A stretch of 62,219 nucleotides of DNA from a virus (Duplodnaviria > Heunggongvirae > Uroviricota > Caudoviricetes), in the IMG/VR virus record IMGVR_UViG_3300033148_004507; one strand, written 5' to 3'. Under the pieces are notes generated by a model, which saw only the letters and a list, made by a program, of their open reading frames with translations, made no database searches and was not told the origin of the DNA. The first letter of the stretch is position 1, and each line of letters starts with the position of its first letter. The translations under genes were made by a program, and so were the position numbers. Below are positions 40,935 to 62,056 of this stretch, piece by piece.

Positions 40935-41534
40935 ATGAAAAGGGGTAGTGGCTGGAGGGGCGAATCGCACAGGCATCGATTAGCAGGCATGGGCATCAAG
41001 ACATCTAATGGGGTATGGGCTATTAAAGATTTTAATATGGAACAACACATGATTGAATATAATAAATATTGGAGAAATCAATCAAATACACTTCCAGAAT
41101 ATATTATATCTGATGATGAACTGATAAAAATATTATCAAAAGTATTCAAACAGTTTAGAAATAAGAAAGTAACTGAGAAAGACATTATATTTGAAATATC
41201 ATTAGGTTATAGATGGGTGACTCCGAGAGAAGCATCGATATTAGTTAATACAGCAGAAGAGAGGGGCTTAATAACACTAGATTCAGAAAAACTAAAAGGT
41301 ATAAAAGGACAATCAGTAGCCACAGTAGAGTTCGATTATAAAAATATTGAGACAGAAGGATTTATTGCAAGAATTCAAGAAGATGCAACAATACAATTAG
41401 AAGCATCAGGTCAATTATTCAGATTCAATGAATTAGAGCCTCATATTCAGAGATTAGTATTGAGATATGATACTCTTGAAAACATAAGGAGAAACGAACC
41501 ACTCTTTTTTGAGAGTGGCACAGAGGTTTATTGA
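40935..41534 (+). CDS. Leader-tag protein 1 (GWRGESHRHRLAGMGIKT)
   Basis: N-terminal shared motif; internal LEASG; DUF2240-like EISLGYRWVTPREA segment possible. Confidence 0.8.
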   Translation: MKRGSGWRGESHRHRLAGMGIKTSNGVWAIKDFNMEQHMIEYNKYWRNQSNTLPEYIISDDELIKILSKVFKQFRNKKVTEKDIIFEISLGYRWVTPREASILVNTAEERGLITLDSEKLKGIKGQSVATVEFDYKNIETEGFIARIQEDATIQLEASGQLFRFNELEPHIQRLVLRYDTLENIRRNEPLFFESGTEVY

Positions 41535-41544
41535 GGGATTTCAA

Positions 41545-42066
41545 ATGGGTAAAAGTAATAGTCAAGGTTGGAAGGGCGAATCGAGGAGACATAGCATGGC
41601 CCGTATGGGATATAAGACAGTCCTCCCAGACGGTAGGAGACTCCACATGGGCGACTTTGTTGCAGGCGGGAGTATTCATGGATATAATGTAAATGAAATT
41701 TATGACCACTTTATTATCGCAATGTTATGGAGTTCCCACGATGATAATTATAAACATGAGGTACATTTGGAAGATAATTATGATATAGGCGATATTGATG
41801 CAGAAACAAAAATAGCCATAAAGAATCATATTGAATCATTTATAAAAGAAAATCATGAGATTATAAAGGAGTTAGAAATATCTGAAGAAATGATTGGTCA
41901 TGATTTATTTATGGATACACAAGGTCATGGGGTAGGATTTTGGGATAGGGGATATAGTTCGTTGGGAAATAAATTAAGCGAGAATGCAAGTAAATATTTC
42001 AACGATAGTATGTATGCTTATGCAGGTGATGATGGTAAAATCTATTTTGAAGGGGTAAGTGATTAA
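41545..42066 (+). CDS. Leader-tag protein 2 (extended leader ending FVAGG)
   Basis: GWKGESRRHSMARMGYKT; payload with GHDLFMDTQGHGVGFWDRG phage-type motif. Confidence 0.8.
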   Translation: MGKSNSQGWKGESRRHSMARMGYKTVLPDGRRLHMGDFVAGGSIHGYNVNEIYDHFIIAMLWSSHDDNYKHEVHLEDNYDIGDIDAETKIAIKNHIESFIKENHEIIKELEISEEMIGHDLFMDTQGHGVGFWDRGYSSLGNKLSENASKYFNDSMYAYAGDDGKIYFEGVSD

Positions 42067-42067
42067 T

Positions 42068-42637
42068 ATGAAAGGTAGAGGGCAAGGCTGGAAAGGAGAA
42101 TCGCAAAGGCACAGAATGAGTTCATACGGCATATCCACAACGGGTCAGGAAGGCCGATTGCATGGACTTGCAGTAAAAGAGGGTATTACACCTCTCGATG
42201 TAGACCGTAGAGAGCTATTAAAGGGCATGTACATTGAGATGGAGCATACAGACGACCCAATGGTTGCCATGCAGATTGCCTTAGACCATTTGGCCGAGCA
42301 TGACCATTATTACTCAGAGGTCTTGATAGACCATGAAGAGTTAGAAGCTAGTGGCCTTATGGACACCATAATTTCATCATTAATTCCTGTAATAGTTGAT
42401 AAGACATGGAGTACAGATACGAAAGCCTCTGGGATACCAAAATATAATGAACAAGAGTATGAACATGATTTAAAAAAATTAGAACAAATTACATTTGAAG
42501 AAGGACGTAAAATAAGCAAGTCACATTATCCAAAAAGTGAATATGATTTATTTGAAGAGAGATTAATCAGAAAATATGGTAGAGATGGATTTATGGATAT
42601 GCGTAGAGAAATGTATAAAAGAAATTTTGGAGGCTAA
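42068..42637 (+). CDS. Leader-tag protein 3 with DUF5661-like domain
   Basis: GWKGESQRHRMSSYGIST; KGMYIEMEHTDD...IALDHLAEHDHYY; LEASG. Confidence 0.8.
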   Translation: MKGRGQGWKGESQRHRMSSYGISTTGQEGRLHGLAVKEGITPLDVDRRELLKGMYIEMEHTDDPMVAMQIALDHLAEHDHYYSEVLIDHEELEASGLMDTIISSLIPVIVDKTWSTDTKASGIPKYNEQEYEHDLKKLEQITFEEGRKISKSHYPKSEYDLFEERLIRKYGRDGFMDMRREMYKRNFGG

Positions 42638-42639
42638 AT

Positions 42640-43371
42640 ATGAAAGGACAAGGCTGGAAAAACGAATCACATAGACACAGGATGGCAGGCATGGGCATCA
42701 AAAGTGGAAATAAATCAATCAATATAAGTACAAAAAATAAGACACATAAGTTTGCTAATAGTTTACCATTTTGGAATAAGAAAGAAATAAAAGAATTTGA
42801 AGATAGATTTGGAAAGATTACAGGTGTAGATGATGAAAGGTATGGCGAATATAGGATAGAAATTAATAATAAAGAATATAGAGTATTTAAAAGTTTTGAT
42901 ATAGCAGAAACTACAGCAATTATGGAAGTAAAAGAAGATTTAGAAGATGACCCTGGATTATTCTCATCATCATGGTTAGAAAGTCATCTTGATTTAGAAG
43001 CGATGTTAGATATTCTGGTAGATGACTATGATGAATTAACATTTGGAGAACCTGCAATAGATTGGTTTAATGAAGATGAAATAAGAGAAGCATTAGATTT
43101 AAAAGAAATAGAACCAATAGCAGATATAAATATGGATGATTTACAAGGTACAGATTTATATGATGCTAGAGCGAAAGAAAGGGCTGAAGATATAGTTTAT
43201 AATGGTGCAGATAGAAACATATATTTCCCAAGTGATGTGATTAGAAGTTATTTAGATATTGATTCTGCATCAGAAGAAGCTGTAATGATAGATGGAGTAG
43301 GCCATTTTCTTGCAGGATATGATGGAGATGAACATAACATTAGAGATGCATATATTTATAGAATAAATTAG
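42640..43371 (+). CDS. Leader-tag protein 4 (acidic payload)
   Basis: GWKNESHRHRMAGMGIKS; C-terminal DGVGHFLAGYDGDE...YIYRIN. Confidence 0.8.
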   Translation: MKGQGWKNESHRHRMAGMGIKSGNKSINISTKNKTHKFANSLPFWNKKEIKEFEDRFGKITGVDDERYGEYRIEINNKEYRVFKSFDIAETTAIMEVKEDLEDDPGLFSSSWLESHLDLEAMLDILVDDYDELTFGEPAIDWFNEDEIREALDLKEIEPIADINMDDLQGTDLYDARAKERAEDIVYNGADRNIYFPSDVIRSYLDIDSASEEAVMIDGVGHFLAGYDGDEHNIRDAYIYRIN

Positions 43372-43383
43372 GAGATGATTAAC

Positions 43384-43950
43384 ATGGTACAACCAAAGGG
43401 CTGGAGGGGAGAATCGCATAGGCATAGAATGGCAGGCATGGGCATCAGTACAAATAATCTCAAAGCATCTGGTGGTTTCAAAGTCACAGTTGGATACTTA
43501 GAAGATTTAATTAGAGAGAACAATGAAAAATATGGGACACAATTTCATCTTGGTGGGGCATATGGCAATTATGAATTATGGGCTGTAGACAATAAGGGGG
43601 ACAATCATAGGCTTGAAGCAGGAAGCAAAAAGGACGTTTATGAGGCATTTATAAAGTACCGATTCGTTGAGAAATACAGAAAAGACGAAATGCCTGCTAA
43701 TGGTAGTAACTCTGAAAAGAGCATATTTGAAATATTAAAAGAAAGAGGAATTCCCACAGACCATCATGAAAGCGATTTATATGTTAAAGCTACACCAGAA
43801 GCCATAGAATTAACTAAGGATTTCGAGAGCAGAGAATTCTTCACATCAAATATCGATGGAGAAAGGTGGATAGATTTACCATTCAGATATGACCCATTCT
43901 GGGACGAGAAGCAAAAAATAATTGATAAAGTTGATAGAGGTAAATATTAG
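43384..43950 (+). CDS. Leader-tag protein 5 (two payload segments)
   Basis: GWRGESHRHRMAGMGIST; LKASG and MPANG junctions; DHHESDLYV...PFRYDPFW payload. Confidence 0.8.
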   Translation: MVQPKGWRGESHRHRMAGMGISTNNLKASGGFKVTVGYLEDLIRENNEKYGTQFHLGGAYGNYELWAVDNKGDNHRLEAGSKKDVYEAFIKYRFVEKYRKDEMPANGSNSEKSIFEILKERGIPTDHHESDLYVKATPEAIELTKDFESREFFTSNIDGERWIDLPFRYDPFWDEKQKIIDKVDRGKY

Positions 43951-43961
43951 GAGAGATTAAT

Positions 43962-44685
43962 ATGAATGGCAAAGGACAAGGCTGGAGAAATGAGTCGCAT
44001 CGGCATAAACTTGCAGGCATGGGCATCAAGACAGGAAGCATGGGGGCATCTGGTAGAATAGATACCGTCAGGACTGAAGTCTTTAAGTTTGATGAGCTTT
44101 CTACAGAGGCTCAACAAAAAGCAATTGAGAAACAATATGATATTAATGTACGTGATTTTGAATGGTGGGATTCTGATGGATTGTTAGATTTATCATCGGA
44201 TGAAATGAAAAGATTAAAGATAAAATTATCAAAAGAATGGTGGAAATCTGATAAACCAAAAGACGATAGAGGTAATATCATCGGAGAATATCCTGCATAC
44301 ACTGGCCTAATCAAATATGATATTGGAGAATTCGATATTGATAGGAGACAATATGTGCAATTTGAAAATATTGAGATAATTGATGAAGATATTTTCAGAA
44401 AATTATTAGGCATACCAGTAAAGACATGGAAGAAGGTAGATTATTGGTTTTCAAATCCGCAAGGAGAATACAATACGGAAATAGGATTTGAAGCACATGA
44501 AGATTTAACATTGAGAGAAGAAGAAATTATGCAGAAAGCATCCGACATATGGGATGATAAAGTACATGATGCATATGTTTCATTGAATAAAGAATATGAA
44601 TACAGAACAGGCGAACGAAGCAATAATAGAAACAATCAAATCAAATGAATATGAATTTACAGAGGATGGTGAAATTTATGGGTAA
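43962..44685 (+). CDS. Leader-tag protein 6; apparent +1 frameshift near 44616 (ORF stops at 44648 as given; restored end 44685)
   Basis: GWRNESHRHKLAGMGIKT; MGASG; FKFDELSTEAQQKAIE; family-typical tail EAIIETIKSNEYEFTEDG continues in the +1 frame. Confidence 0.7.
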
Positions 44686-45370
44686 AGGTAACGGACAGGG
44701 TTGGAAAGGAGAGTCACGCAGGCATGCTATGTCTCGTATGGGCTACAAAACAGTTCTCCCAGATGGTAGGAGACTTCACATGGGCAACTTCGTTGCAGGT
44801 GGTGAACTTGCCTTATCATATGAGATGACGGGTGGTAAAGCACGTAATTTCGACTTTGGAGAGGGTTATGGGGAAACATGGGAACTATGGATTCCAGACT
44901 TCTATGATATGACAAAAGAAGAAGTTCTCAAATATCTTGAATCAGCAGTCGGTAAAGATTATATGGGTGAATATAATGATAAAGACAAAGACGAATTGAT
45001 AGATGATGCCACAGAGCTTTGGCATGAGCAAGAATCTCCTATGATGAACTACATATACCCTCTCGGCCAAGACTTCAGACCCGATGATGACACATATAAG
45101 AAGCTCAACAATATGACAATCGTAACGGTTGATGATGAGTATTATCTTGCCTTGACTGGCGGTGGTATGGACATGACTTGGCAAATAGCCGAGACTTATG
45201 TAAACTTGGGATATTTCCCACCTTCCGATTACTGTGATTTGCCAGGAATGGCTGGAAAAGACTATAAGAGCAAAAAGAACCAAAGGATAATCGAAGCTTG
45301 CAAAGAAAGTCTTGATGCAGTATCGGAAAGGGCATTGAGGACGAAGAAGAATATAGATAGGTTGGGATAA
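44678..45370 (+). CDS. Leader-tag protein 7 (extended leader ending FVAGG)
   Basis: GWKGESRRHAMSRMGYKT; payload PMMNYIYPL...LALTGGGMDMTWQIAETY. Confidence 0.8.
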   Translation: MGKGNGQGWKGESRRHAMSRMGYKTVLPDGRRLHMGNFVAGGELALSYEMTGGKARNFDFGEGYGETWELWIPDFYDMTKEEVLKYLESAVGKDYMGEYNDKDKDELIDDATELWHEQESPMMNYIYPLGQDFRPDDDTYKKLNNMTIVTVDDEYYLALTGGGMDMTWQIAETYVNLGYFPPSDYCDLPGMAGKDYKSKKNQRIIEACKESLDAVSERALRTKKNIDRLG

Positions 45371-45371
45371 T

Positions 45372-45890
45372 ATGAGTAAAGGTTGGTTTGGTGAGTCACG
45401 AAGGCATGGTATGGCGAAGATGGGCTATAAGACAGTTCTTCCAAACGGTATGAGATTCCATATGGCTGATTTCGTTGCTAGCGGTAAAAGAATAGAAATA
45501 GATTGGGAGAAAGGATTCCTTACAGAGAAAGAAATCAATCTGATAAAAAATAGAATGAATACTGGAGAGAAGGTTGATTTAAGCTATTTATATGAGCAAA
45601 GAGATACAACTAGCGAGGGTATGCTACTTACTCCTGAACAGAATCGTAAAGGATATGAATGGTTAATGAATCAATGGAAAACACCGAGAGGGGACGAGAG
45701 AAAGAACAATCCATTTGGTTATAGAGAACAAGACATTCTTGATAATTTTGACCATTTTGAACTAATTGATTTCTATGATGCTGGAAATATAAATAGAAGT
45801 TTCTATGTACCATATTATGAGGTCGTATCAAAGAATGGAGCTACATTTGAATATGTAATGGTTGGCGGAGAGATAAAGATATTGGGGTGA
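45372..45890 (+). CDS. Leader-tag protein 8 (extended leader ending FVASG)
   Basis: GWFGESRRHGMAKMGYKT. Confidence 0.8.
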   Translation: MSKGWFGESRRHGMAKMGYKTVLPNGMRFHMADFVASGKRIEIDWEKGFLTEKEINLIKNRMNTGEKVDLSYLYEQRDTTSEGMLLTPEQNRKGYEWLMNQWKTPRGDERKNNPFGYREQDILDNFDHFELIDFYDAGNINRSFYVPYYEVVSKNGATFEYVMVGGEIKILG

Positions 45891-45896
45891 TTGAGA

Positions 45897-46349
45897 ATGG
45901 CAAAACCTAAAGGCTGGAAAGGAGAAACGCACAGACACAAGATGGCGGGTATGGGAATAAGCACGACCCCTCAGAAGTTCAGCGAGAGTTCTGGGCTTTG
46001 GTTTGAAAGTAACGGCATATCAAAGGATACAGTACGGCTTGTCAACATGATTGGTTTTGATAGCGTTGATATAAAGGTAGCTAAAGGCTACGAGAGAAGC
46101 GAATACGAGAAGGATGCCAGTATGATAGCTATATTGCCAGTTTCTAAAGCGAAAGCGAGTGTAGAGTGGTTGGAAGATGAATATGAATCGTCCAATCAAG
46201 TTAGAAAGCATAAACTCATGAACATCGTAAAGATGACAAGAGCCAGAATTTCAAGGGAACTTGGAATGAGAAACCCGTCATCTACAAAGGTTGAACTTCA
46301 TAAGAGCAGAAACCTATTCAATAATTTTATAGTGACGTATGGGGGCTGA
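45897..46349 (+). CDS. Leader-tag protein 9
   Basis: GWKGETHRHKMAGMGIST; FESNG. Confidence 0.8.
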   Translation: MAKPKGWKGETHRHKMAGMGISTTPQKFSESSGLWFESNGISKDTVRLVNMIGFDSVDIKVAKGYERSEYEKDASMIAILPVSKAKASVEWLEDEYESSNQVRKHKLMNIVKMTRARISRELGMRNPSSTKVELHKSRNLFNNFIVTYGG

Positions 46350-46353
46350 TTAT

Positions 46354-46905
46354 ATGGGAAATAAAGGCCGTGGTTGGAGAAATGAGTCACATCGACACAG
46401 ATTAGCGGGTATGGGAATACCTACTATTAAGAGAGGACTCAAATCAACAGATAGACTTAAAAGAGATTTATTAATTGATGTCGATGGATATATACTTGAA
46501 AAAGATAAGTATGGTAGATATTATGTTATCCGTCCTGACCTTATTACTGATAGCTTATATATCGATTTATGGGGCAACATATTTTATGATGACCCGCATA
46601 AGATACCAGACAATATAATGAGCATAATTGAAACCGAAATAAGAGAAGATTTAGAATACGATATAGCAATGTTCGACTCATCTGGTGAAAGGCAAAGACA
46701 TTCTTTGGCAACAAGAGGATATGTAAGAATGCCTGATGATAGTCTAGTCAATATAGAAATGTCTGAAGAAGAAAAAGAAAAAATAAATAATATGTTAGAG
46801 AGGGGAGATATAACCATGCCAAATTCAGAAAACATAAGCGAATCAGATGAAGCTATTAGAATGTTTGAAGCAGTACAGGAAGCTAAGAGAATAAGGAGGC
46901 TATAA
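46354..46905 (+). CDS. Leader-tag protein 10 (second degenerate tag internally)
   Basis: GWRNESHRHRLAGMGIPT; FDSSG-ERQRHSLATRGY. Confidence 0.8.
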   Translation: MGNKGRGWRNESHRHRLAGMGIPTIKRGLKSTDRLKRDLLIDVDGYILEKDKYGRYYVIRPDLITDSLYIDLWGNIFYDDPHKIPDNIMSIIETEIREDLEYDIAMFDSSGERQRHSLATRGYVRMPDDSLVNIEMSEEEKEKINNMLERGDITMPNSENISESDEAIRMFEAVQEAKRIRRL

Positions 46906-46906
46906 A

Positions 46907-47614
46907 ATGGCAGGAGTTAAAGGCATGAAATGGGGTAGGACAAAGAGACAAACAAAAGGCAAAGGTCAAGGCTGGCATGGTGAAAGCCGAAGGCATTGGT
47001 TAGCCAAATTTGGCATTAGTACAGTTCTCCCAGATGGCAGGAGACTTCCTGTTGATAGATTCATTGCGATGGGCAATAAATCAGAACATTATCAAGAAGG
47101 ATATGAGGATGGAAGATTTTCTGCTGAAGTCAACATAGGCGAAGATTTCCATGAAATGATAGAAGCCTATAAAGAGGACAGAATCGGAGAGATAGTTCAA
47201 GAGCTTAGAGAGAATCAAACTCAAATGTCTGGCGACATATCATATGATGTAATGTATGATGAAGATGATAAGCCGAGTAAAACCAGATGGATAAAGCCAT
47301 CGGAATACGAGGAATGGGAAGAAGGATACTATAACGGTTTTTATGAGACTATTAGATTAGAATATATCCATGATAATATTATGGCTATTTATGATAATGG
47401 TGGAAGGTCATTTGATAGATATTCGATTATTTTCAAAGATGGAGATTTGGTTGGAATGAGTCATAATCCAAAATCACCACAAGGATTTAACCAATATTCA
47501 GGAAATATTAAGGAATGGGGTTTAAAAGATTTAAGCCATCTTGGGAAAGAAACAAATATTAAAGATTTAAGCCCTGAAATTCAGAATGCTATTGAGAAAA
47601 GGATAGGTGATTAA
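46907..47614 (+). CDS. Leader-tag protein 11 (GVKGMKWG followed by extended leader)
   Basis: MAGVKGMKWG...GWHGESRRHWLAKFGIST VLPDGRR; FIAMG; payload YDNGGRSFDRY...PQGFNQY. Confidence 0.8.
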   Translation: MAGVKGMKWGRTKRQTKGKGQGWHGESRRHWLAKFGISTVLPDGRRLPVDRFIAMGNKSEHYQEGYEDGRFSAEVNIGEDFHEMIEAYKEDRIGEIVQELRENQTQMSGDISYDVMYDEDDKPSKTRWIKPSEYEEWEEGYYNGFYETIRLEYIHDNIMAIYDNGGRSFDRYSIIFKDGDLVGMSHNPKSPQGFNQYSGNIKEWGLKDLSHLGKETNIKDLSPEIQNAIEKRIGD

Positions 47615-47615
47615 T

Positions 47616-48662
47616 ATGAGCAACGGCAAAGGTAGTGGATGGAAGGGTGAAAGTCACAGGCACAGGCTTGCAGGCATGGGCATTAAGACCGTGAATGATT
47701 TCAATTATAGCGGAGAAAATGGTCAGCTATTGGTCAGCAACGGTGTTACTGAATCATTTGCTAAATTGGGTGCAAAATTAAAGACTGGTTTTGCCAAGGC
47801 TAAAGTAGGGGTAGTTGATTTAGCGAGAGCTGGAGTTGAGAAAGGAAAAGAATTAAAAGAAGAAATATCATCCAAAACACATTCCACTCCTGACACGGCA
47901 GTTCCAATGATTCCACCAAGGGAAGGTCAGCCAGCATCAAAAAAGAAAAAGATTGGTGGTGCGGTAAAAACAACGGACACCCCATCTCAATTGAGAGCGA
48001 ATAAATCAAAAGAGGATATTGAAGGCATTAAGAGGCAAGCAAAAGCAACCCAGGAGTTCGAAGATGCAGTAGAAGATGTTTCTGATATTAGAGGGAAAGA
48101 CACCACATCACGTCCAGAAGGACAGCGAACATCAAGTGAACATCTGGACAGGACAATCAAAGGCGTTGCTCGAAGCGGTAGACAAACCAGGCCAGATATA
48201 AATGTCAATCAGGCCATGATGGAGAGTATAGATGCTGATGACATCATAGCCCTTGCTCAAAACAAGGAACAGCTTATCAAGTATACAACTGCACTTCAGC
48301 ACGACATGAATAAGATTGATGCCGAGAGGAAGGCGATGTCTGACGAATTCAAAAACATCGAAAGGACGAATCATAAAACTCTTCAGAATAGTCGTAGACT
48401 TCAGATGTCAAATTCCAAACAAGAGGTAGATAATATTAAGATGTCTGGACTTAAAAAACATAAAAGAGATAATAAAATCAAGCAAATCAAGATTAGAGAT
48501 GAAGCAGATTACAGAGGAAAGAGTAACGTCCTAAAAGACCAGAGGAGGCAACATCAAGTAGACCTCAGATTCGCAGATGACATCAACAAAGACTTAAAGA
48601 GACTGCATCGACAGATAGACAAAAGAGTTAAGATGATGATTGCATCAGGACAACCGCAATAA
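47616..48662 (+). CDS. Leader-tag protein 12 (long, basic, coiled-coil; core/scaffold candidate)
   Basis: GWKGESHRHRLAGMGIKT; LVSNG; ends MIASGQPQ. Confidence 0.8.
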   Translation: MSNGKGSGWKGESHRHRLAGMGIKTVNDFNYSGENGQLLVSNGVTESFAKLGAKLKTGFAKAKVGVVDLARAGVEKGKELKEEISSKTHSTPDTAVPMIPPREGQPASKKKKIGGAVKTTDTPSQLRANKSKEDIEGIKRQAKATQEFEDAVEDVSDIRGKDTTSRPEGQRTSSEHLDRTIKGVARSGRQTRPDINVNQAMMESIDADDIIALAQNKEQLIKYTTALQHDMNKIDAERKAMSDEFKNIERTNHKTLQNSRRLQMSNSKQEVDNIKMSGLKKHKRDNKIKQIKIRDEADYRGKSNVLKDQRRQHQVDLRFADDINKDLKRLHRQIDKRVKMMIASGQPQ

Positions 48663-48719
48663 ATATAAACAAAAACAGACATGTAGATATTTAATACAAT
48701 ATCTAATGGAGACTAGAAA

Positions 48720-50018: not shown

Positions 50019-50032
50019 ATGGAGGAATTATA

Positions 50033-52708
50033 ATGAAAAAGATATTAAGTATTGGATTGATTAGCCTAATGATTTTAACAATAATAACACCACTGGCAAA
50101 TGCAGTTGAGCAAGATAATCTTATAGTAAACGGAACTTTTGATGAAAACATGGATAATTGGAATCTTTTAATGTCTGAAAATTTCACTATATCATCCGAA
50201 GCTAGTAATTGCGTATTCAACACAACACACACAGATTTATTAGCAGATATGAATTATACTGATTTTCAAAACAACGTTACTTTGGTGAATATGACCTATC
50301 ATTATAATGATTTGTATGAAGGCACACCCACTCCATTAATATTAGGAGATGGATATATAGAACTAGTAAATACAACCACAAATCTTTTTAATCTATCATC
50401 AGATGGTTGGGAATATCAAGAAGTTGATTACCCCGAAGGGTATTTTGTTCAGGATGGGGGTAATTACACAATAGAAAGCAAGCAAAACCCTAGTTTTATA
50501 GTACCAGTATATGAAGATTATGACACTGATGAGCCGTCACAAGCAAACTTTCAAGGTAATGGAGAGAATTATTTCAAATGGAATGATAACAACGCAATAG
50601 AATGCGAATTTATAAACAACTGGACAGGTTTTGACATATCAGCTCGAAGATATTGGGATATTCCAGATATTGATAATCGTACATTTGAGATTGGTGATAC
50701 ATTTACATACGATACATTTGTACAATTAAACAATACCATACCTCATGATAGTGGTAGTATGACATTTATTATAATGAATAAAACATTTGATTCAACAGCC
50801 GATGCAGATGGAAATGCAAACGGAATATTAGCATCAATTTATGATGGTTCTAATGGATATGACGGTTATTGGGGTATTCGATTTTATGCAGGAGGCAGTA
50901 TTGGTGATGATGGTTATATCGCAGTAAGTGGTATAATAACGGATGCTGAATTTACTGATGGTGTTTGGCTAACAATATCTAACGAAGTTATAAGCACTAC
51001 TCCATTCTTTATAGAACCGACAATAGAAGTACATACAGATTCATATGTTTTAAAAGCATCAGAAACACTACCACCATTTCAATTAAACTATACATTAGAT
51101 TCCATAGCAATAAGTAATTTAGACTATGAAATGAATTTTTTTGGTTCACAAAGTCAAAATGAAACCGCAAATGGAAATGTATCGCATATTGGGTATTGGC
51201 ACATACCCGCATCGATGAGTACTAATACACAAGCACAATTCACAAAAACTATTAACATAACTAAAAATATGACCGTTGATGCTAAAGTATTATACAAACA
51301 TTATTATGATGCTCAAGCAGGATATATCTATTCTAATGCAACATTAAACAACAATCAAATAGATGGTGGAATGTCAGATTATGTAATATATACAAATAGT
51401 AAAAAGATACCATTATCTTGGCGTGAAGGTAAACTTGCAGAATCCGTTATAGTTGAACAAGGCACATTAGAATGTAATTTATCAACAATACACTCAACTG
51501 TAGAAGGCAATATTGATTTCCCTGCAAAATCAACACAATGGAAAGACCTTTGGGTGAATGGTACTACATACAATATGACTGGTGAAGTCATTTCTAATGT
51601 CAAGACAATGAATTATTTAGCCGATTGGCTTGAATTTACAATGTCGGTAGAAAAGCCATATGATACTACAAACCAATATTTCATAGCATATACAAGAAAT
51701 GGAGATACAGATACACCAGATGGTAGTTGGTCAAGTTGGTATGAAGTAACAAATTGGTATAGTGAAAATAATGATGAAGATTTAACATATTTTGGGCATA
51801 TTAATTCTCCAAATTCAGTCTATGGTCAGTACAGGGTAGAATTTTACAATAATATTACAGAAGAAACAATGAAAATTCATTCAATGGGATTATATTTAAC
51901 ACAAGCAGGTGTTAATGATGAATGGGGTTCGATAGAGCAGAAATTCACAAAACCATATACAAATTACACTACCTTAAAATATGATTATAAAATAGATTAC
52001 TTAAACAATACATCCAATGGTAATATTACAGTTATGGTGGATGATTATGTAGTAGCACAACATGACTTCACATTCTTCGAAACAAATTGGATAACTGAGA
52101 TACATTCTTTACCGATAGCATTTAATTCATCTGGGACATATAGTTTAAATATAACAGTAGAATCATCTTTCAACTCTACAAATGGCACAGCAATAATATT
52201 CTTCGATAACATTGAATTGCTAATTGAGAATCAAGCCCCTATAATTACATCATTTAATGTCCATAACGGTACATCAGTCGTAGATTTCAATGGTACATTT
52301 ACAGACCACACAAGAGATTCGAATTTTAATTATCTTGGCATGACTGGAATAGAATCTGCTAATATTAGCATTGGGATATTTGAATTTGATATTGATACGA
52401 TAACTTATATTGGTAATGGCACATTCTGGTTTGAAACAACTTGGATTGACCCTCCATTTGAAATATCGAGAAGAATCATACTAAATGCCACAGTTACGGT
52501 AACTGACACAACAGACTTATATGATACAGAAATGGTATCTGTACAATTACCAAGAGCATTTGATTGGATAATGGCATTGATGACATTTGGATTTGTAATG
52601 GTCATAATTATATTAATATTCCAGAGGCATCTTATGACTGGATGGGATTCGAACAAGAGTACAAGCGATGAGAATTTACTACCGAATATCATCACGGGAG
52701 ATAAATGA
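50033..52708 (+). CDS. Large secreted glycoprotein, CBM-like N-terminus, C-terminal TM anchor
   Basis: Signal peptide (ANA|VE); LIVNGTFDENMDNW; many sequons. Confidence 0.8.
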   Translation: MKKILSIGLISLMILTIITPLANAVEQDNLIVNGTFDENMDNWNLLMSENFTISSEASNCVFNTTHTDLLADMNYTDFQNNVTLVNMTYHYNDLYEGTPTPLILGDGYIELVNTTTNLFNLSSDGWEYQEVDYPEGYFVQDGGNYTIESKQNPSFIVPVYEDYDTDEPSQANFQGNGENYFKWNDNNAIECEFINNWTGFDISARRYWDIPDIDNRTFEIGDTFTYDTFVQLNNTIPHDSGSMTFIIMNKTFDSTADADGNANGILASIYDGSNGYDGYWGIRFYAGGSIGDDGYIAVSGIITDAEFTDGVWLTISNEVISTTPFFIEPTIEVHTDSYVLKASETLPPFQLNYTLDSIAISNLDYEMNFFGSQSQNETANGNVSHIGYWHIPASMSTNTQAQFTKTINITKNMTVDAKVLYKHYYDAQAGYIYSNATLNNNQIDGGMSDYVIYTNSKKIPLSWREGKLAESVIVEQGTLECNLSTIHSTVEGNIDFPAKSTQWKDLWVNGTTYNMTGEVISNVKTMNYLADWLEFTMSVEKPYDTTNQYFIAYTRNGDTDTPDGSWSSWYEVTNWYSENNDEDLTYFGHINSPNSVYGQYRVEFYNNITEETMKIHSMGLYLTQAGVNDEWGSIEQKFTKPYTNYTTLKYDYKIDYLNNTSNGNITVMVDDYVVAQHDFTFFETNWITEIHSLPIAFNSSGTYSLNITVESSFNSTNGTAIIFFDNIELLIENQAPIITSFNVHNGTSVVDFNGTFTDHTRDSNFNYLGMTGIESANISIGIFEFDIDTITYIGNGTFWFETTWIDPPFEISRRIILNATVTVTDTTDLYDTEMVSVQLPRAFDWIMALMTFGFVMVIIILIFQRHLMTGWDSNKSTSDENLLPNIITGDK

Positions 52709-53484
52709 TGAAATTCGTAAAAGGCTATTGCAGAGAGGGTCAAGTATTCAGAGGCAACCAGAAATTACCAAAAAAAAAGAGCAGTAATAAAAGCATATCT
52801 CAAAGCGATTCAAATAATGATTCTATACCAAAGACACAAGAATTAACCCCCTCTCAGAAAGTCAAATTAGATAAAGACATCAACACCGCCAATACAGTAT
52901 CATATGATAAGGCTTATAAAGATTATATGAAAAGAGAGGCTGAGAAGGTAAAATCGGAACGGAAAGCAATTAAGAATCAATCTCAGAATTCAAAAGGTTC
53001 TGGTTGGCATGATGAAAGTCAGAGACACGCACAAGCTAGGATGGGCATTAAGACTGCAAACAATACACAGTCTCCAGATACTATTCAACAACCTACAGAT
53101 ATTCCATCAGATGCTCCTACAGACATAACGAGTGATACAGGTCAAGTAAAACTTGCAAATAATATTCAAGATGATATGCATAAACTTGATAAATTATTAA
53201 GACATGCTACTAATTTATCTGACAAAAAAAGAGCCACTGAAAAACTGTTGGAGGCTGAGAAATATTATTTAAGATTATCTGATAAAATGAAACATCATAA
53301 AAATAATGTGGGAGAACTTCCCCAATGGGTTAATCAGACATGGCAAGGTACTGAAGATTTTGGTATAGATGGAACCGTAAGAAAGAAAATGGATAAGCTA
53401 TTGAATGCAGATAAAGATAACTTCGAGAAGAGGCAAGTCGAATTATTTAATGCAGTTAGATTGCCTACAGAACCAATTAGGTGA
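52705..53484 (+). CDS. Leader-tag protein 13 (tag internal, about 53000-53055)
   Basis: GSGWHDESQRHAQARMGIKT after a low-complexity N-terminus. Confidence 0.75.
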   Translation: MMKFVKGYCREGQVFRGNQKLPKKKSSNKSISQSDSNNDSIPKTQELTPSQKVKLDKDINTANTVSYDKAYKDYMKREAEKVKSERKAIKNQSQNSKGSGWHDESQRHAQARMGIKTANNTQSPDTIQQPTDIPSDAPTDITSDTGQVKLANNIQDDMHKLDKLLRHATNLSDKKRATEKLLEAEKYYLRLSDKMKHHKNNVGELPQWVNQTWQGTEDFGIDGTVRKKMDKLLNADKDNFEKRQVELFNAVRLPTEPIR

Positions 53485-53489
53485 TATGG

Positions 53490-54086
53490 ATGAAAAAGAA
53501 CAAAGGAAATGGATGGTATAATGAAAGCCATAGGCACAAATTAGCCTCAATGGGAATTAAAACAACATATAAATACAAAGGTAGTGGTAAGAGAAAACTT
53601 CAAATAATGCTTCCAGAATATACTAAGCAACAGATTACACACATAACAAAGATGGCTGACGAAGGCTCAAAAGAGTGGATTGCAGAGCTTAAAGTCAAAA
53701 ATGGGCAAATATATATGAATGACATCCAAATATCTCAGGAAGTAGACCACAGCTACCTTCATTGGGACTCAGGTGATGAGTTAGAAGATGTCGGATACAT
53801 ACACTTCCATCCGAAGAGCCTAATCCCCGAATTCACAGCACAGGACTTCGTATTAGCCATTAATGTTCACAATCTGAGAAAAAATAAAAATATATATCCA
53901 TATACTATTATGGGATTAATATACCCCACTAAAAAAGGATATGAAATCAAAATGTTCGGAATTAATCCAAGTGAAAAGAGAATTGAAGATTTCGAAGGCT
54001 TAATAGCTGTCGAAAGTAATATGAAAGATAAGTTAAAACAGATGGAGGCATCTGGAGAGCTAATCAAAATGAGGGAGAGAAAATAA
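53490..54086 (+). CDS. Leader-tag protein 14: JAB/MPN(JAMM)-like metalloprotease
   Basis: GWYNESHRHKLASMGIKT; KEWIA (Glu) ... IHFHPKSLIPEFTAQD (HxH-x8-T-x2-D, close to JAMM HxH-x7-S-x2-D); ends MEASG. Confidence 0.7.
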   Translation: MKKNKGNGWYNESHRHKLASMGIKTTYKYKGSGKRKLQIMLPEYTKQQITHITKMADEGSKEWIAELKVKNGQIYMNDIQISQEVDHSYLHWDSGDELEDVGYIHFHPKSLIPEFTAQDFVLAINVHNLRKNKNIYPYTIMGLIYPTKKGYEIKMFGINPSEKRIEDFEGLIAVESNMKDKLKQMEASGELIKMRERK

Positions 54087-56719: not shown

Positions 56720-57383
56720 TAGATACATAAAAATCAATGCGGTAATATTCATATTATTAATTATACTTCCATCCATAGTCTTAGCATCAATTCCAACCCC
56801 TATAGCATTCGATAGAGATAACACATACGAGCTAGACGGGTATCGGCCAGGGGGCTACTACGTAATTCGTCAGAACCCTGCTTTAAACGGCTCTATGAAC
56901 ATTTCATATAGTGGTGGAGATGGCAATACTTTCAATATCACAACAGACAATATAGAAAATATAACTCTCGATTTTGACTTAATGTATGGTGAGAGAAGCT
57001 TCTTATTTGGTTGGGGGAATATTACTTGGGAGGATGCTGTCGCCTCATTAAATAATAGAATACACATCAATATTAATAACACAGATGGACTATCTGAACT
57101 TAGATTTGTAGACCAACCAGATTTAATTGTTAGAATATCTCTGAATGATATAGTAATTCATGATTGGGATAGGCTAGAAGATATAATTATATATACGAAT
57201 AATACAACTGGAGACAATCAAGTTTTAATAGAATTTCAGCCATTCCAGACATTAGTTGGTAATTTAATGTCATTATTACAATTCATTGTATTCTTTGGTA
57301 TAATGTTCTTAGTCTTAAGATGGATACACAGAGCATTATTCTATGATGAAGGTGAATATTATAATAGCTTCGGAGGAGAATAA
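56709..57383 (+). CDS. Secreted glycoprotein with C-terminal TM anchor
   Basis: Signal peptide; sequons; C-terminal hydrophobic helix. Confidence 0.75.
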   Translation: MITDRYIKINAVIFILLIILPSIVLASIPTPIAFDRDNTYELDGYRPGGYYVIRQNPALNGSMNISYSGGDGNTFNITTDNIENITLDFDLMYGERSFLFGWGNITWEDAVASLNNRIHININNTDGLSELRFVDQPDLIVRISLNDIVIHDWDRLEDIIIYTNNTTGDNQVLIEFQPFQTLVGNLMSLLQFIVFFGIMFLVLRWIHRALFYDEGEYYNSFGGE

Positions 57384-57384
57384 A

Positions 57385-57660
57385 ATGAGTAAGGGCAGTG
57401 GTTGGCATAATAATTCATATAATCATAAACTTGCAAGCATGGGGATAAAGACAAAAATAATTAGAGATATGAGAATCAAAAAGCCTGTTAAAGTTATATG
57501 GAAACAAGAGGATAAGAATGAAGATACAATACAATTAGAGAAAGATTTCAAAGACCATAAAGATGCCAGTGAACATATTATTAGATTAGAAAAGAGTGCC
57601 GAGAGTGTTAATAAACCTGTTGAAATAATCGAAGTAAAACAGATTACTAGGAGAGATTAA
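57385..57660 (+). CDS. Leader-tag protein 15
   Basis: GWHNNSYNHKLASMGIKT; start moved to ATG 57385. Confidence 0.75.
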   Translation: MSKGSGWHNNSYNHKLASMGIKTKIIRDMRIKKPVKVIWKQEDKNEDTIQLEKDFKDHKDASEHIIRLEKSAESVNKPVEIIEVKQITRRD

Positions 57661-57662
57661 GA

Positions 57663-59243
57663 ATGAAAGGAAAAACAACAATAATATTGATGACAATAAC
57701 ACTGATGATAACATCTGTAATGTTCATCGGGCAGGTAAATGCAGAAACTACACCACAACCAGAAGTACAATATAACCTACATGATAGAATTGTAATTGAT
57801 ATAGTTGATGATTTTATGTTATATCCAGAAATAACTGGTGATGGCACAGAATTTAACACATACATAATAGAAAATATTGAAATTGACGGGTCAATGGAAG
57901 AGGGGAGTTGTATTTATATCAGTGTAGATGACCCTGTATATGTCATAATAAGGGATTCATATTTACACGACTCTGTGTATGGGAATACACCAGGTGCAGA
58001 CCCTCCTGATGATTATCCATCAGGTATTGCTATTTTCGGGGGTATAAATTTAATTATAGACAATGTTGTTTTGGAGAATCATAATGAAATGGGGCAGGAA
58101 AGTCATGGAATTTATGCAGAAAACTCATTTTTGGATAGTACAGATATGAATATAGAAGTCATAGATTGTGAAATAACTACTTCTCTCAAAGCTTTATGGA
58201 TAGATTGTTATTATGGTGGATTAGTTGAAATTAAAAATAATACCATTCATAATAACAATGATATATCCGAATTTACTCTCAGTATTGAAAACCACATCAT
58301 ATCTGGGAATGAATATTATTCAAATGCGGGTGCGCTCATTGTCACTGGAGATAGCATTGAAATTTCTAATAATTCATTCCATGATAATACCCCATTTACT
58401 GCATTCTCTACAGGTACAGATGATTCAAAAATATGTTTTAATACATTCACCAATAATGGCATAGGGATGTATCTTGGTGTTACTCATAACAATATCATAT
58501 TTAATAACACATTCCAAGCCAATAACTACGGGATTAGTATTTTCAATTCTGGTTATGACCATGTATTTTGGAATAGATTTATTAATAATACTAACCAATA
58601 TTATACTTTTGGTATGTCATTACCATATTGGTGGAATTTAACATATTATGAGGGTGGTGGGAATTATTGGTCTGATTATAATGGTACAGATATATATTCT
58701 GGAGTCAATCAAGATGAGGAAGGCAGGGATTATATTGGAGATACACCGTATGAGATAGGAACAATAACTGATTATTATCCTTTAATCAACATATCTGGTT
58801 GGGTCAATCTTACTGTACCTGCTATATACGATGCCTATTCAATAGATGATAATAAAACCATTGCATTTTCATTCTATGAATATATGGATACTGAGAGTAA
58901 TGGAACAGCCCTTATTGATAATACAACCGAAGTCAATTATACCTGGGAAGATTCTAATACATTAATAGTAGATACTAATGGAACAACAGAAAACGAAACA
59001 TTCACATTGACGGTATCTGATTTCGAAAGCAAGTCTGGGTATGAAATGCAAGAGTACGAATCAATATTCGCCATTCAATTACCAACTACCTACCCTTTAG
59101 AGCCAGAAAATGAGCTTGAAGTCCAGCTTACAGTCTGGCAAGTATTACAACCGATGTTCATTGGCATCCTGGCATTAATGATAATTATAATATTCTTCAA
59201 AAAGATGAAGGAAGGTCTTGAGGAAGATTTCGGAGATGTATAA
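57663..59243 (+). CDS. NosD/right-handed beta-helix surface protein with C-terminal TM anchor
   Basis: Parallel beta-helix repeats (NTFTNNGIGMYL, NNTFQANNYGISI); GGNYWSDYNGTD...IGDTPYEI...DYYPL. Confidence 0.85.
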   Translation: MKGKTTIILMTITLMITSVMFIGQVNAETTPQPEVQYNLHDRIVIDIVDDFMLYPEITGDGTEFNTYIIENIEIDGSMEEGSCIYISVDDPVYVIIRDSYLHDSVYGNTPGADPPDDYPSGIAIFGGINLIIDNVVLENHNEMGQESHGIYAENSFLDSTDMNIEVIDCEITTSLKALWIDCYYGGLVEIKNNTIHNNNDISEFTLSIENHIISGNEYYSNAGALIVTGDSIEISNNSFHDNTPFTAFSTGTDDSKICFNTFTNNGIGMYLGVTHNNIIFNNTFQANNYGISIFNSGYDHVFWNRFINNTNQYYTFGMSLPYWWNLTYYEGGGNYWSDYNGTDIYSGVNQDEEGRDYIGDTPYEIGTITDYYPLINISGWVNLTVPAIYDAYSIDDNKTIAFSFYEYMDTESNGTALIDNTTEVNYTWEDSNTLIVDTNGTTENETFTLTVSDFESKSGYEMQEYESIFAIQLPTTYPLEPENELEVQLTVWQVLQPMFIGILALMIIIIFFKKMKEGLEEDFGDV

Positions 59244-59795
59244 ATGAAAAAAGGTAGAGGTTGGAGAAACGAATCACAGCGACACAGGATGAGTGCCTAT
59301 GGTGTTAAGACAGCCAATCAACCGATGAAGGCCAGTGGTCTTGATGATAAAATCATGCTCGAAGAGATGCGAACAACACATGAGCATATGGAGAATATTC
59401 AGAGTTCATATGATGATGAATTCGGGGATGATGAAAGCTTAGATTTCTATAGGGGGGTCAATGCATTAGGGGAAGTAATTGATAGACAGGGCGATTTGAA
59501 ATCGTCAGGCAAGATAAAAGTTGGTAAGAATTCATATTGGTCTGATGCAACACAAGATATTATTGATAATGGTCTTGAATCTAAGCTTGGATATGATTAT
59601 AACAAATATATAAATAATGAATATTCAAACAAACAAATGAATCGATTTTACAAAAAAGCAATAAAAAGCGAAGAGCTATGGAAAGATTTCAGTGAGGAAT
59701 TTAAGAAAGAATTCGAAAGAAATCCTACGAGAAAGGAATATATCTATCATATAAGATTCAATATGAATAAGAAAAATAGGAGGGAAAATAAATGA
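59244..59795 (+). CDS. Leader-tag protein 16
   Basis: GWRNESQRHRMSAYGVKT; MKASG; LKSSG. Confidence 0.8.
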   Translation: MKKGRGWRNESQRHRMSAYGVKTANQPMKASGLDDKIMLEEMRTTHEHMENIQSSYDDEFGDDESLDFYRGVNALGEVIDRQGDLKSSGKIKVGKNSYWSDATQDIIDNGLESKLGYDYNKYINNEYSNKQMNRFYKKAIKSEELWKDFSEEFKKEFERNPTRKEYIYHIRFNMNKKNRRENK

Positions 59796-60304
59796 AAGGC
59801 AAGGGGAAAGGTTGGCACGATGAATCGCAACGGCATAGAATGAGTGCATATGGTTTATCAACTAAAGAGAATTTCAATAATAAACCCAGATATAAAGGAC
59901 AGCACGTTCACACCATTACAAAGGAAGACATCGGTCAGATGTACACTAAATATAAATCCTGTAACGAATGTGATAATAGTGCAGTCATTGTATGGTCAGA
60001 TGTTCTTGGGGAGGTATTACCTTTAGATGTTGGTAAAAGAGTAATGCTTATTGATGGCATCCATATGGTTGAGAATGACGAGCAATTAAAGAGAAGATTA
60101 CAATCATCTGGGCAAAAGAAAGTAAAATTAATAGATGTCAGAAAGAAAATATTAGATGATATGGGGATTAGTTACGATTATTATCCACCAGAGCAGACAA
60201 ATGATGGAAAAGCAAGATGGATATACCTAGGTGATAAAGAGTCAAAGAGTTTTAAAACATATCCAAGTTTTGAAAGATATTTAGAATCAATAGGAGATAT
60301 TTAA
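59792..60304 (+). CDS. Leader-tag protein 17
   Basis: GWHDESQRHRMSAYGLST; CNEC; VLPLDVGKRV; LQSSG. Confidence 0.8.
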   Translation: MKGKGKGWHDESQRHRMSAYGLSTKENFNNKPRYKGQHVHTITKEDIGQMYTKYKSCNECDNSAVIVWSDVLGEVLPLDVGKRVMLIDGIHMVENDEQLKRRLQSSGQKKVKLIDVRKKILDDMGISYDYYPPEQTNDGKARWIYLGDKESKSFKTYPSFERYLESIGDI

Positions 60305-60826
60305 ATGCCAGAAGAATTCAGAGAATTAGTAAAAGACCAACTGGAGCAGGGAAAAGATAAGAAAGAGGCCACACGTATGGCATCAATAGTATTCTGGAAA
60401 ATATACGGAACCACGCCAAGAAAGGCTGATAAACTAGAGCAAGAAGGTAGATGGAATCCCGATATGTACAGAAGGATGTCTGCAAGCGGTGTATTAAAGA
60501 AACCAAACAGCATTCTATTAATTGGAGACATTAATAAAATAGATGAGCTAAAGAACGTTACAGGCTTATTTCCAGTTGATGAAGAACATTTTGATAATGA
60601 TAAAATAGGGGCCGAATTCATAGTTCGAAGTTCAGAAGATAGGGGTTTATTGCTAGATAGTGCTACCAATCTCGGTCTTGCAACATCTGTATCTTCATTC
60701 TCCAGTCAACCAGTAGGTATGGCAAGTGGTTATAAAAACAAGTCAAACGGTATTGGGTGTGGTTGGCATGGCGATTCCAGAGGTCACTCAAGAGCAGGTA
60801 AGAAAGGCTGGAGGAATAGGAGATAA
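60305..60826 (+). CDS. Leader-tag protein 18 (tag at the C-terminus)
   Basis: Ends GWHGDSRGHSRAGKKGWRNRR; MSASG internally. Confidence 0.75.
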   Translation: MPEEFRELVKDQLEQGKDKKEATRMASIVFWKIYGTTPRKADKLEQEGRWNPDMYRRMSASGVLKKPNSILLIGDINKIDELKNVTGLFPVDEEHFDNDKIGAEFIVRSSEDRGLLLDSATNLGLATSVSSFSSQPVGMASGYKNKSNGIGCGWHGDSRGHSRAGKKGWRNRR

Positions 60827-60831
60827 TATAA

Positions 60832-61461
60832 ATGAGTAGGCGAAATAAAGGCTGGAAGAACGAGTCGCATCGACATCAGCTTGCAGGCATGGGCATCAGT
60901 ACATCAAATGGAATTAAAGCAATTAAACCATCTGATAAAATAGATATAAATAAATATTTTGATTATAATAAAGCAGGATATGATATAGATTCATTATTAT
61001 TAATCCCTTCACGAAAACAATCCAAAAAACATTTAATGTGGGATGTTGAAGATTATATATATTGGCTTAGAGGTGAATCGAGCTATGGCGAAGATGTTAA
61101 AATAAAAATATTTTTAAAAGATGAGGCGTTTGACAAGCCATATGATTTGGAAGATTTCGATATTGAGAAGAATAGATTAGTAAGGTATGAGGGGCAATAT
61201 TATAACATACCAATAAAAAGACCTTTGAATAGAAATAATATTGAAAACATCATCAAGATTGATTCATACGGGACATACGATTTCTATGGTGAATTAATAT
61301 ATGATTATGAAGTTATAGATATGTTAGATAATAAAGATTTAAAATTAAAAGAAGACATATTTGACTTGTATAATAATCAAACAGCATTAAGATTAAAAAA
61401 TATGGATTGGATAGATATTACACCCGAATCTATAAAGAAATGGAGGAATCAAGATGAATAA
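60832..61461 (+). CDS. Leader-tag protein 19
   Basis: GWKNESHRHQLAGMGISTSNG. Confidence 0.8.
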   Translation: MSRRNKGWKNESHRHQLAGMGISTSNGIKAIKPSDKIDINKYFDYNKAGYDIDSLLLIPSRKQSKKHLMWDVEDYIYWLRGESSYGEDVKIKIFLKDEAFDKPYDLEDFDIEKNRLVRYEGQYYNIPIKRPLNRNNIENIIKIDSYGTYDFYGELIYDYEVIDMLDNKDLKLKEDIFDLYNNQTALRLKNMDWIDITPESIKKWRNQDE

Positions 61462-62056
61462 GAAATCTGGTTGGCACAATGAGTCGCATCGTCATAGGCT
61501 TGCAAGCATGGGCATTAGTACAAACGATAGAATGATAATTTTCAGTTCGAATGGTCAGCCAGAAAACAAATATTTTAAAATGGATACTGGCCTTCCAGTA
61601 CATCAGGATATGATGGACAATCCAGAATATTTCAGAAAGAATAAAGAAATACAATGGAAGATAATTTGGATAACTGCTGATGAATATGAAGAAGCAATTT
61701 CAAAAGGATTCAAAGAAGAATCTATGGTATTAAGAAATAAATATATTCCAGATAGTGAAATTAGACATAGAATATCTGAAGAACATCTTGAGAAGATTAA
61801 AAATATAATGATTAATTTAGAAAAGCAGGGAGATGGTATTGACATGCCAAATTTGAGGTATTCTACACATTATGGTTACAGAAGCGAAACAAAAAAGCCG
61901 TACTTCGACCAAGAAGGCCATCATCGAACAGTCGCATCCAGGGAGCTTGGGGAAGAGATGATTCCAGTATTCATTGAATTCCCAACAGAAATTAATGATA
62001 TTGAATTAGTAAAGCAATATATGACTAATAAAATAAAACAAAAAGTATTAGAATAA
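61454..62056 (+). CDS. Leader-tag protein 20 with ParB/Srx-like domain
   Basis: GWHNESHRHRLASMGIST; FSSNG; DQEGHHRTVASRELGEEMIPV. Confidence 0.75.
   Translation: MNKKSGWHNESHRHRLASMGISTNDRMIIFSSNGQPENKYFKMDTGLPVHQDMMDNPEYFRKNKEIQWKIIWITADEYEEAISKGFKEESMVLRNKYIPDSEIRHRISEEHLEKIKNIMINLEKQGDGIDMPNLRYSTHYGYRSETKKPYFDQEGHHRTVASRELGEEMIPVFIEFPTEINDIELVKQYMTNKIKQKVLE

Follow-up and report, generated by a model that had tools for sequence, protein, structure and literature searches.

In bacteriophage T4, the proteins IPI, IPII, IPIII and Alt carry the capsid-targeting sequence (CTS), a short N-terminal peptide found on otherwise unrelated, rapidly exchanged proteins. The genes for these proteins are clustered near structural genes, and the proteins are presumed to accompany the DNA into the host. 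Here we describe a 62,219-nucleotide stretch of DNA (IMG/VR virus record IMGVR_UViG_3300033148_004507; the window, by which we mean the whole stretch analyzed) in which 20 open reading frames (ORFs) share a peptide, hereafter the tag, that resembles the T4 CTS in also being short, N-terminal and present on unrelated, clustered proteins. It likewise recalls the leaders of extracellular contractile injection systems (eCIS) such as the Photorhabdus virulence cassette (PVC), in which a transferable N-terminal leader directs a range of unrelated payloads into a particle that delivers them. Our favored reading of the locus, to which we give slightly less than an even chance, is that the tag would load soluble proteins into the particle for delivery to the next cell.

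We scanned all six translation frames of the window for the motif, using looser patterns for the remaining copies. The consensus over plus-strand ORFs between 40935 and 62056 (n = 20 ORFs) was G-W-x-x-E-S-x-R-H-x-x-A-x-x-G-x-x-T. There were 17 exact matches to GW..ES.RH, all on the plus strand and all from position 40935 onward, against 4e-4 expected by chance in six frames from the window's own six-frame residue frequencies. Three further copies came from the looser patterns: 45891 (ET for ES), 57343 (GWHNNSYNH) and 60305 (GWHGDSRGH, degenerate and C-terminal). The scan recovered the same 20 ORFs as the original prediction, twelve of them consecutive (starts at 40935, 41509/41545, 42059, 42640, 43375, 43962, 44645, 45372, 45891, 46339, 46907 and 47607) and eight amid secreted-protein genes (52705, 53481, 57343, 59244, 59792, 60305, 60832 and 61454). 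It found no tag before 40935 or on the minus strand of the window, in keeping with the predicted absence from the early ORFs. Placement at or near the N-terminus in 18 ORFs was also borne out: in 18 of the 20 the tag started within the first 22 residues, with an in-frame ATG shortly 5' of it in several of these, and the exceptions were 52705 (residue 100, internal) and 60305 (residue 153, C-terminal).

When the 20 copies were aligned, G, W, H and G proved invariant and E, S, R and T almost so. Structure prediction places the tag core as a basic 9-residue helix (S-R-R-H-S-L-A-R-K type) between G-W and G-x-x-T. Because AlphaFold2 (AF2), run on 150 aligned tags, returned only this short isolated helix over S-R-R-H-S-L-A-R-K, we regard the tag as a short linear motif and not a folded domain. 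About one tag in five continues into a second block, [LI]PDGRRF-x-V-x-x-FVA-x-G. Tagged proteins have a length of 105-351 aa and one payload each; the tag has an isoelectric point (pI) of 10-12, and most window payloads are acidic (pI 4.3-5.7).

To find related loci, we built a tag profile from the 20 window copies and searched it against 1.84 billion cluster representatives (E up to 1e-3). The profile found 1,467 proteins (clusters at 50% identity). Among the best 150 of these 1,467 matches, the Trp lay no more than 12 residues from the start in 130, and about a fifth had an extension ending FVA-x-G. The search for similar arrays that the original prediction had called for was productive. Runs of adjacent tagged genes were found in six other elements, among them G001, a 74-kb IMG/VR genome that is complete and has terminal repeats, with 25 matches to the profile and 24 tagged ORFs by gene count; G003, two contigs of a metagenome-assembled genome (MAG) labeled WOR-3; G002, two contigs of a Woesearchaeota MAG; and the large metagenomic contigs L019 (91 kb) and L020 (75 kb). 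The G003 contigs (L012-L014; JAGLYS010000294 and JAGLYS010000224) had 27 profile matches and were collinear with the window and G001, and these "candidate division WOR-3 bacterium" contigs are evidently a mis-binned virus. The sole NCBI names on tagged proteins in our census searches (hypothetical protein, WOR-3 bacterium) trace to the MAG so labeled. In cellular genomes, the strict pattern occurred at 5 loci in 185,579 species genomes, and in the DPANN phylum to which the Woesearchaeota MAG belongs just 2 of 301 genomes had a match. The tag is thus almost confined to virus-like contigs, whose hosts are probably Methanomassiliicoccales-like and DPANN archaea.

The tag does not correspond to a described domain in the collections searched, as no model in Pfam (E up to 0.1), NCBIfam or PHROGs spans it. 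A motif string search of the literature found no mention of the tag. A tblastn search with a 44-residue tag against 50,697 GenBank phage and archaeal-virus records and the PLSDB plasmids gave no match, which is weak evidence given the short query, and megablast of 20 kb of the window against phage records also gave none. A profile search of the PDB returned a single borderline match (E 0.08-0.1) to residues 1183-1199, GDSPRHSLASMGYVT, of 23sg chain S, "gp10" (1239 aa), which is without the Gly-Trp and is possibly a chance resemblance. Should this gp10 be a virion protein with GDSPRHSLASMGYVT ordered, its structure could reveal the partner of such a helix. We regard as new the peptide itself, the archaeal lineage that carries it and the concerted evolution of the tags described below.

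The original prediction held that the sequences after the tag are unrelated. This stood in that Pfam and PHROG matches begin downstream of the tag and fall into different families (DUF2240, phrog_1915, phrog_5162, phrog_4496 and, weakly, DUF5661 and a ParB-like PHROG), but a tag-masked all-versus-all BLASTP connected four ORFs (41509, 44645, 45372 and 46907), solely via the 16-residue extension LPDGRRLHMGDFVAGG. Among 150 tagged proteins from elsewhere, Pfam identified ART-PolyVal (E 5.8e-10), ARPP-1 (E 1.5e-23), DUF5661 (three times), RQC, cupin, ZapA and DUF2240, and further tagged proteins from elsewhere added a second ART-PolyVal and a lipocalin. The DUF5661, JAB and ParB labels first given to window payloads do have matches, but all of them are weak. 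For 61454, the match was to phrog_4715 (E 0.008), and the language-model look-alikes were ParB-CE, ParB_N and PFIN; for 53481, the look-alikes were Prok-JAB and Toxin-JAB1. We treat 61454 as ParB/Srx-like and 53481 as JAB-like as leads only.

The payload of 41545 allowed a direct comparison of tagged and untagged relatives. Of its 77 homologues, 68 lacked the tag, were approximately 133 aa long and started directly at the payload. Two further types of match were full-length tagged relatives and proteins with the tag alone in common. In an AF2 model of the 41545 family (mean predicted local distance difference test score, pLDDT, 88), the payload had a pLDDT >90 from about residue 45, and the tag formed a separate short helix of lower confidence. 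A Foldseek search of this model against the PDB gave no match at E up to 0.001, and the payload is possibly a new fold. Payloads of this phrog_1915 type (41545-42066) have ALWSS-x-D and GHGAGFWDR motifs and are common without a tag. These comparisons identify the tag as a portable module added onto pre-existing and mostly untagged families.

Codon usage also bears on portability. At identical tag residues, codons agreed in only 41-56% of pairs, with synonymous switching between TCN and AGY for Ser, AGR and CGN for Arg and CTT and TTA for Leu. Because synonymous sites are scrambled, selection acts on the tag peptide and not on the DNA, and the conservation cannot be put down to duplication in the recent past, to a site of recombination or to a signal in the RNA. 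Together with the untagged payload homologues, the scrambled codons uphold the earlier description of the tag as a portable peptide. It might nevertheless be proposed that the motif is an artefact, in the sense that the tagged genes are fast-diverging paralogues or that a repeat, recombination or translation signal at the DNA level lies at their 5' ends. The genes are tandem and of similar size, and one G003 gene (L014, contig C140, 7796-8761) opens with MGWKGES, seven residues from the start of the tag, and runs on directly into a signal peptide and secreted protein, a hybrid that suggests recombination within tag-coding DNA. However, the payloads match different, unrelated families, the 41545 homologues are mostly untagged, and synonymous positions are saturated, TCN/AGY serine switches included. 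We therefore consider an artefact very improbable.

The tag also divides the late block by protein type. We used a Kyte-Doolittle scan (19-residue window) to split late-block proteins into those with a membrane or signal segment and those that are soluble. All 20 tagged window proteins were soluble (19-residue maximum ≤1.55), whereas 15 of the 19 untagged late proteins had a membrane or signal segment and 4 were soluble. In the late block of G001, 24 soluble proteins were tagged, and of the untagged proteins 13 were membrane proteins and 5 were soluble; none of the 53 early soluble proteins of G001 was tagged. Late proteins are nearly always either membrane or secreted and untagged, or soluble and tagged; a late-block protein that is unable to reach a membrane-bound particle by insertion nearly always carries the tag. 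This matches the earlier observation that signal-peptide proteins of the window lack the tag. Orthologues in G001 were found for 6 of 20 tagged genes versus 12 of 19 untagged late genes, so tagged genes turn over faster than their untagged late neighbors.

A Sec or Tat signal was rejected, as the original prediction had argued, because none of the 20 tagged proteins has a hydrophobic core. The likeness of the tag, through S-R-R-x-x-L, to a Tat signal (S/T-R-R-x-F-L-K, then a hydrophobic core and an A-x-A site) is superficial, the residue before the conserved Arg being His in 10 of 19 window tags.

Restriction to the late block is relevant to a different proposal, that the tag docks viral effectors on one abundant host machine (a chaperone, AAA unfoldase or proteasome, ribosome or membrane complex) for stabilization, localization or takeover. 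A single helix that is portable and fast-spreading is typical of short linear motifs, the payloads are effector-like, and tag variants differ most between elements of probably different hosts (the window versus G001 and G003 versus the Woesearchaeota contigs). However, the early block is the usual site of takeover genes and is untagged. We regard docking on a host machine as improbable.

Internal and repeated copies of the tag were also recovered outside the window. The protein P0003 (654 aa; L017:10001-11965) is encoded amid a run of large proteins on a 104-kb NCBI contig. It contains three tandem units internally, each made up of a tag, its extension and a degenerate second copy (RRH-x-x-SA-x-G...FV), which indicates that tag and extension can serve as an internal repeat module. 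Two small acidic proteins, P0130 (L021:4001-4237) and P0040, have two repeats of GWHGDSEGHAEAAKG, and the copy at 60761-60811 in the window is of the same type. P0130 adjoins SurA-like and NDK genes in a bacterial-looking chromosomal context, and these acidic repeats might represent a cellular relative of the viral tag or a product of convergence.

These copies would suit a tag that is a nucleic-acid tether with no role in packaging, in which the basic helix binds DNA or RNA and gathers tagged enzymes on the genome or on a replication or transcription factory in the infected cell. The internal repeats of P0003 fit multivalent binding to a polymer, and a related motif in cellular small proteins fits a universal ligand. 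The tag is strongly basic on mostly acidic payloads, its core is helical and rich in Arg, His and Lys, and several payloads are related to DNA (ParB/Srx-like, RQC and ZapA-like). However, nonspecific DNA binding would not explain the invariant Gly-Trp, nor why early soluble proteins, many of them DNA-handling, are untagged, and it leaves the fixed element-specific residues described below (neutral Ala/Ser and Lys/Met switches) unaccounted for. We think a tether of this kind rather unlikely, and it overlaps with loading into the particle in that genome binding could itself be the means of co-packaging.

Each element has its own variant of the tag. Tag identity was 96% within G003 and 89% within G001, and 59-85% between elements. 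At position 10, all 25 G001 tags have Ala and 25 of 26 G003 tags have Ser, and window tags have Met where all other elements have Lys. Reciprocal best hits identified 11 pairs of orthologous payloads between G001 and G003 (34-69% identity) and 6-8 pairs with the window. Of the 11 G001/G003 pairs, 10 had tags that followed the variant of their own element. Because orthologous payloads bear the variants of their own elements, the arrays predate the split and the tags changed in concert. Either co-evolution with one partner or gene conversion combined with strong selection on the peptide could account for this concerted change, and a third-base comparison at the Ala/Ser switch did not separate gene conversion from parallel selection, as synonymous sites are saturated. 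Given how the variants are distributed, the tag is quite likely a docking motif for one shared partner.

Candidates for that partner come from a comparison of two lineages of uncultivated archaeal virus-like elements that are related to each other, the first consisting of the window, G001 and G003 and the second of G002, L019 and L020. In the first lineage, an ATPase gene is followed by those for a pair of N-terminally anchored membrane proteins, a pair of giant secreted proteins (~800 and ~1,050 aa), one small membrane protein and one small secreted protein with an anchor; the tag array comes next. In profile-profile comparison, only two untagged proteins were common to both lineages. One is a P-loop ATPase (22361..23992, plus strand), which is Zot/DnaA-like and split by a Hint/intein (cross-lineage hhalign probability 91%); it is a candidate morphogenesis or translocation ATPase. 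The other is an N-terminally membrane-anchored protein (30714..31406, plus strand) with the motif LWxTGDK..GYRVGDIxG (cross-lineage probability 55%, E 1.2e-4), and proteins of this type from both lineages have a common block, TGDK...VG-x-I-x-G. It is a candidate tag receptor or matrix protein. A predicted complex of the tag with residues 31-230 of 30714 had a score of 0.00, a result that we take as no evidence either way on binding. A small secreted, C-terminally anchored protein (40154..40735, plus strand) lies directly upstream of the array in the window, G001 and G003.

The ATPase homologues of L019 (4299-6293) and L020 (6057-8099) have Intein_splicing and LAGLIDADG domains, and the G001 and G002 copies are intein-free; the intein comparison also lists L008:4053-5378. 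This pattern suggests that the same hallmark ATPase gene was invaded by inteins repeatedly.

In the loading and delivery reading, all tags of one element would dock onto one shared partner, which might be the membrane-anchored 30714, the ATPase 22361 or the genome itself. Docking would draw a large, fast-changing set of soluble enzymes and DNA-binding proteins into a membrane-bound particle, and the loaded proteins would enter the next cell along with the DNA. A more specific form, which we put forward tentatively, is that these elements are a hitherto overlooked group of capsid-gene-less, membrane-bound archaeal viruses with a sequence-readable cargo code, in which any soluble protein that starts with the GW-ES-RH helix would be captured by a co-evolving virus-encoded receptor (the 30714 type or the ATPase), loaded and delivered.

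Several points weigh against loading and delivery. The presence of tagged proteins in the particle is something that we infer, and 20-25 cargo species are many for one particle. The motif is sometimes internal or repeated (three copies in P0003; internal in 52705), and its acidic variant turns up twice in small proteins whose chromosomal surroundings look bacterial. Because of these internal repeats and the cellular acidic variant, the tag may be a general-purpose binding motif with a ligand that is not necessarily specific to viruses, and we describe it as a binding motif first and as an address by inference. Uniformity within elements could stem from gene conversion plus synonymous drift. 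Pfam and PHROGs scans of window ORFs of at least 60 aa and of selected relatives recognized no capsid, portal, terminase, scaffold or prohead protease gene, although divergent genes could escape such scans. Because no head genes were recognized in the window or G001, the element might instead be a plasmid or one that forms vesicles.

The sequence immediately after the tag raises the possibility of processing. An [AS]-x-G motif lies within 20 residues past the tag in 52% of 193 tagged proteins, where the remainder of their sequences predicts 11%, and may mark a processing site. The tag and its linker might then be a removable propeptide or regulatory leader that keeps the enzymes inactive or marks a small-x-Gly cut, possibly made by the tagged JAB-like protease, with targeting secondary or absent. 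The folded payload of 41545 starts right after FVAGG, and the JAB-like protein belongs to the conserved tagged set. However, the enrichment comes in part from the conserved extension and from motifs internal to payloads, and the JAB assignment is itself a lead. A propeptide as the main function seems to us quite improbable, and removal of the tag would be compatible with loading and delivery, as the T4 targeting sequence is likewise cut off.

All of the tagged genes lie on the plus strand. Gene 1 (40935..41534; 199 aa; tag at nucleotides (nt) 40950-41003) has a payload matching DUF2240 (PF09999, E 5e-8, residues 67-120). Gene 2 (41545..42066) encodes 173 aa from its ATG, in an ORF that opens with TTG at 41509; the tag (nt 41566-41619) is followed by an LPDGRR...FVAGG extension and a phrog_1915 family payload with the ALWSS motif. 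The payload of gene 3 (42059..42637; tag nt 42086-42139) is weakly DUF5661-like (E 3.4e-5, below the Pfam cut-off), and that of gene 4 (42640..43371; tag nt 42652-42705) is acidic (pI 4.3), with a tagged homologue in L019. Gene 5 (43375..43950; tag nt 43399-43452) is followed by gene 6 (43962..44648; tag nt 43980-44033), whose payload matches phrog_5162. An extension follows the tag in gene 7 (44645..45370; likely start ATG 44678; tag nt 44699-44752) and in gene 8 (45372..45890; tag nt 45381-45434). Gene 9 (45891..46349; tag nt 45912-45965, with ET for ES) has orthologues in G001 and G003. Gene 10 (46339..46905; tag nt 46372-46425) precedes gene 11 (46907..47614; tag nt 46970-47023 plus extension), whose payload matches phrog_4496. 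Ahead of the tag in gene 11 is GVKGMKWG (DUF7211-like, PF23847, E 2.6e-4); this motif, G-[VI]-K-G-M-K-W-G, precedes the tag both at window 46907-46970 and in P0106, a homologue from elsewhere, so that two motifs are stacked. Gene 12 (47607..48662; 351 aa; tag nt 47637-47690) encodes a basic protein with a long helical region and has orthologues in G001 and G003.

The remaining eight genes begin with gene 13 (52705..53484), in which the tag is internal (residue 100, nt 53002-53055), unlike its orthologues in G001 and G003, where the tag is N-terminal. Gene 14 (53481..54086; tag nt 53511-53564) has the JAB/MPN-like motif E...HxH-x8-T-xx-D, and its payload is among the best conserved of the tagged set (53% identity to the G001 orthologue). 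A degenerate tag (nt 57400-57453) is present in gene 15 (57343..57660; likely start ATG 57385). Genes 16 (59244..59795; tag nt 59259-59312) and 17 (59792..60304; tag nt 59810-59863) lie upstream of gene 18 (60305..60826), which has the degenerate C-terminal copy GWHGDSRGHSRAGKKGW at about nt 60761-60811, of the type seen in the cellular small acidic proteins. The series ends with gene 19 (60832..61461; tag at about nt 60850-60903) and gene 20 (61454..62056; tag at about nt 61469-61522), whose putative ParB/Srx-like payload has a GHHR motif.

If tagged proteins are loaded and delivered, the motif would provide a one-line sequence rule for the proteins that an uncultivated group of archaeal viruses carries into its hosts, and these proteins would likely be anti-defence or takeover factors in a scarcely annotated part of the virosphere. 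T4-style cargo addressing would then extend to archaeal viruses without recognizable icosahedral heads. The ATPase and the membrane-anchored protein would be indicated as loading machinery, and a short peptide would be usable for loading foreign proteins. If capture by a receptor also holds, a quarter of the genome and >1,400 metagenome protein families could be annotated at once as delivered effectors. Even without packaging, a strongly selected 20-residue motif on >1,400 unrelated families, with element-specific variants, would constitute an undescribed interaction hub.

The closest known systems differ from this one in several respects. Compared with the T4 CTS, the window tag has ~20-40 residues, is strongly basic and is marked by the invariant Gly-Trp, and there is no sequence likeness between the two. 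The host is archaeal, the tag is on 20-25% of all genes, and no HK97-type head, scaffold or prohead protease was recognized in the Pfam and PHROGs scans of this uncultivated element. The same scans detected no sheath, tube, baseplate or eCIS ATPase genes, and the window leader is a conserved motif, whereas an eCIS leader is a loosely defined disordered region.

ART, DdrB-type ParB and RadC-type JAB domains occur in polyvalent proteins, for which packaging or transfer along with phage and plasmid DNA has been proposed (PMC5512222). The payloads may overlap with those of polyvalent and MuF-fused effectors from phages and conjugative elements, by ART-PolyVal in tagged proteins elsewhere and, through weak matches, by the ParB/Srx-like and JAB-like proteins here; their genes also adjoin those for particle components, and an early role after entry is inferred for them (PMC5512222). 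However, polyvalent proteins combine 2-15 domains in one giant polypeptide or are fused to MuF or portal proteins (PMC5512222), whereas here the payloads are separate small genes, each with its own tag. Encapsulin cargo peptides and the signals of type IV secretion systems (T4SS) are also short, portable peptides read by one receptor (the shell protein or the coupling ATPase), and T4SS signals are positively charged too, but those signals are C-terminal, and no encapsulin shell or T4SS genes were recognized here. The simplest reading is that the tag serves as a docking handle, bringing soluble accessory proteins to a single partner in the particle under assembly; such a handle would parallel the T4 capsid-targeting sequence and the eCIS leaders, here in an archaeal lineage without recognizable head genes.

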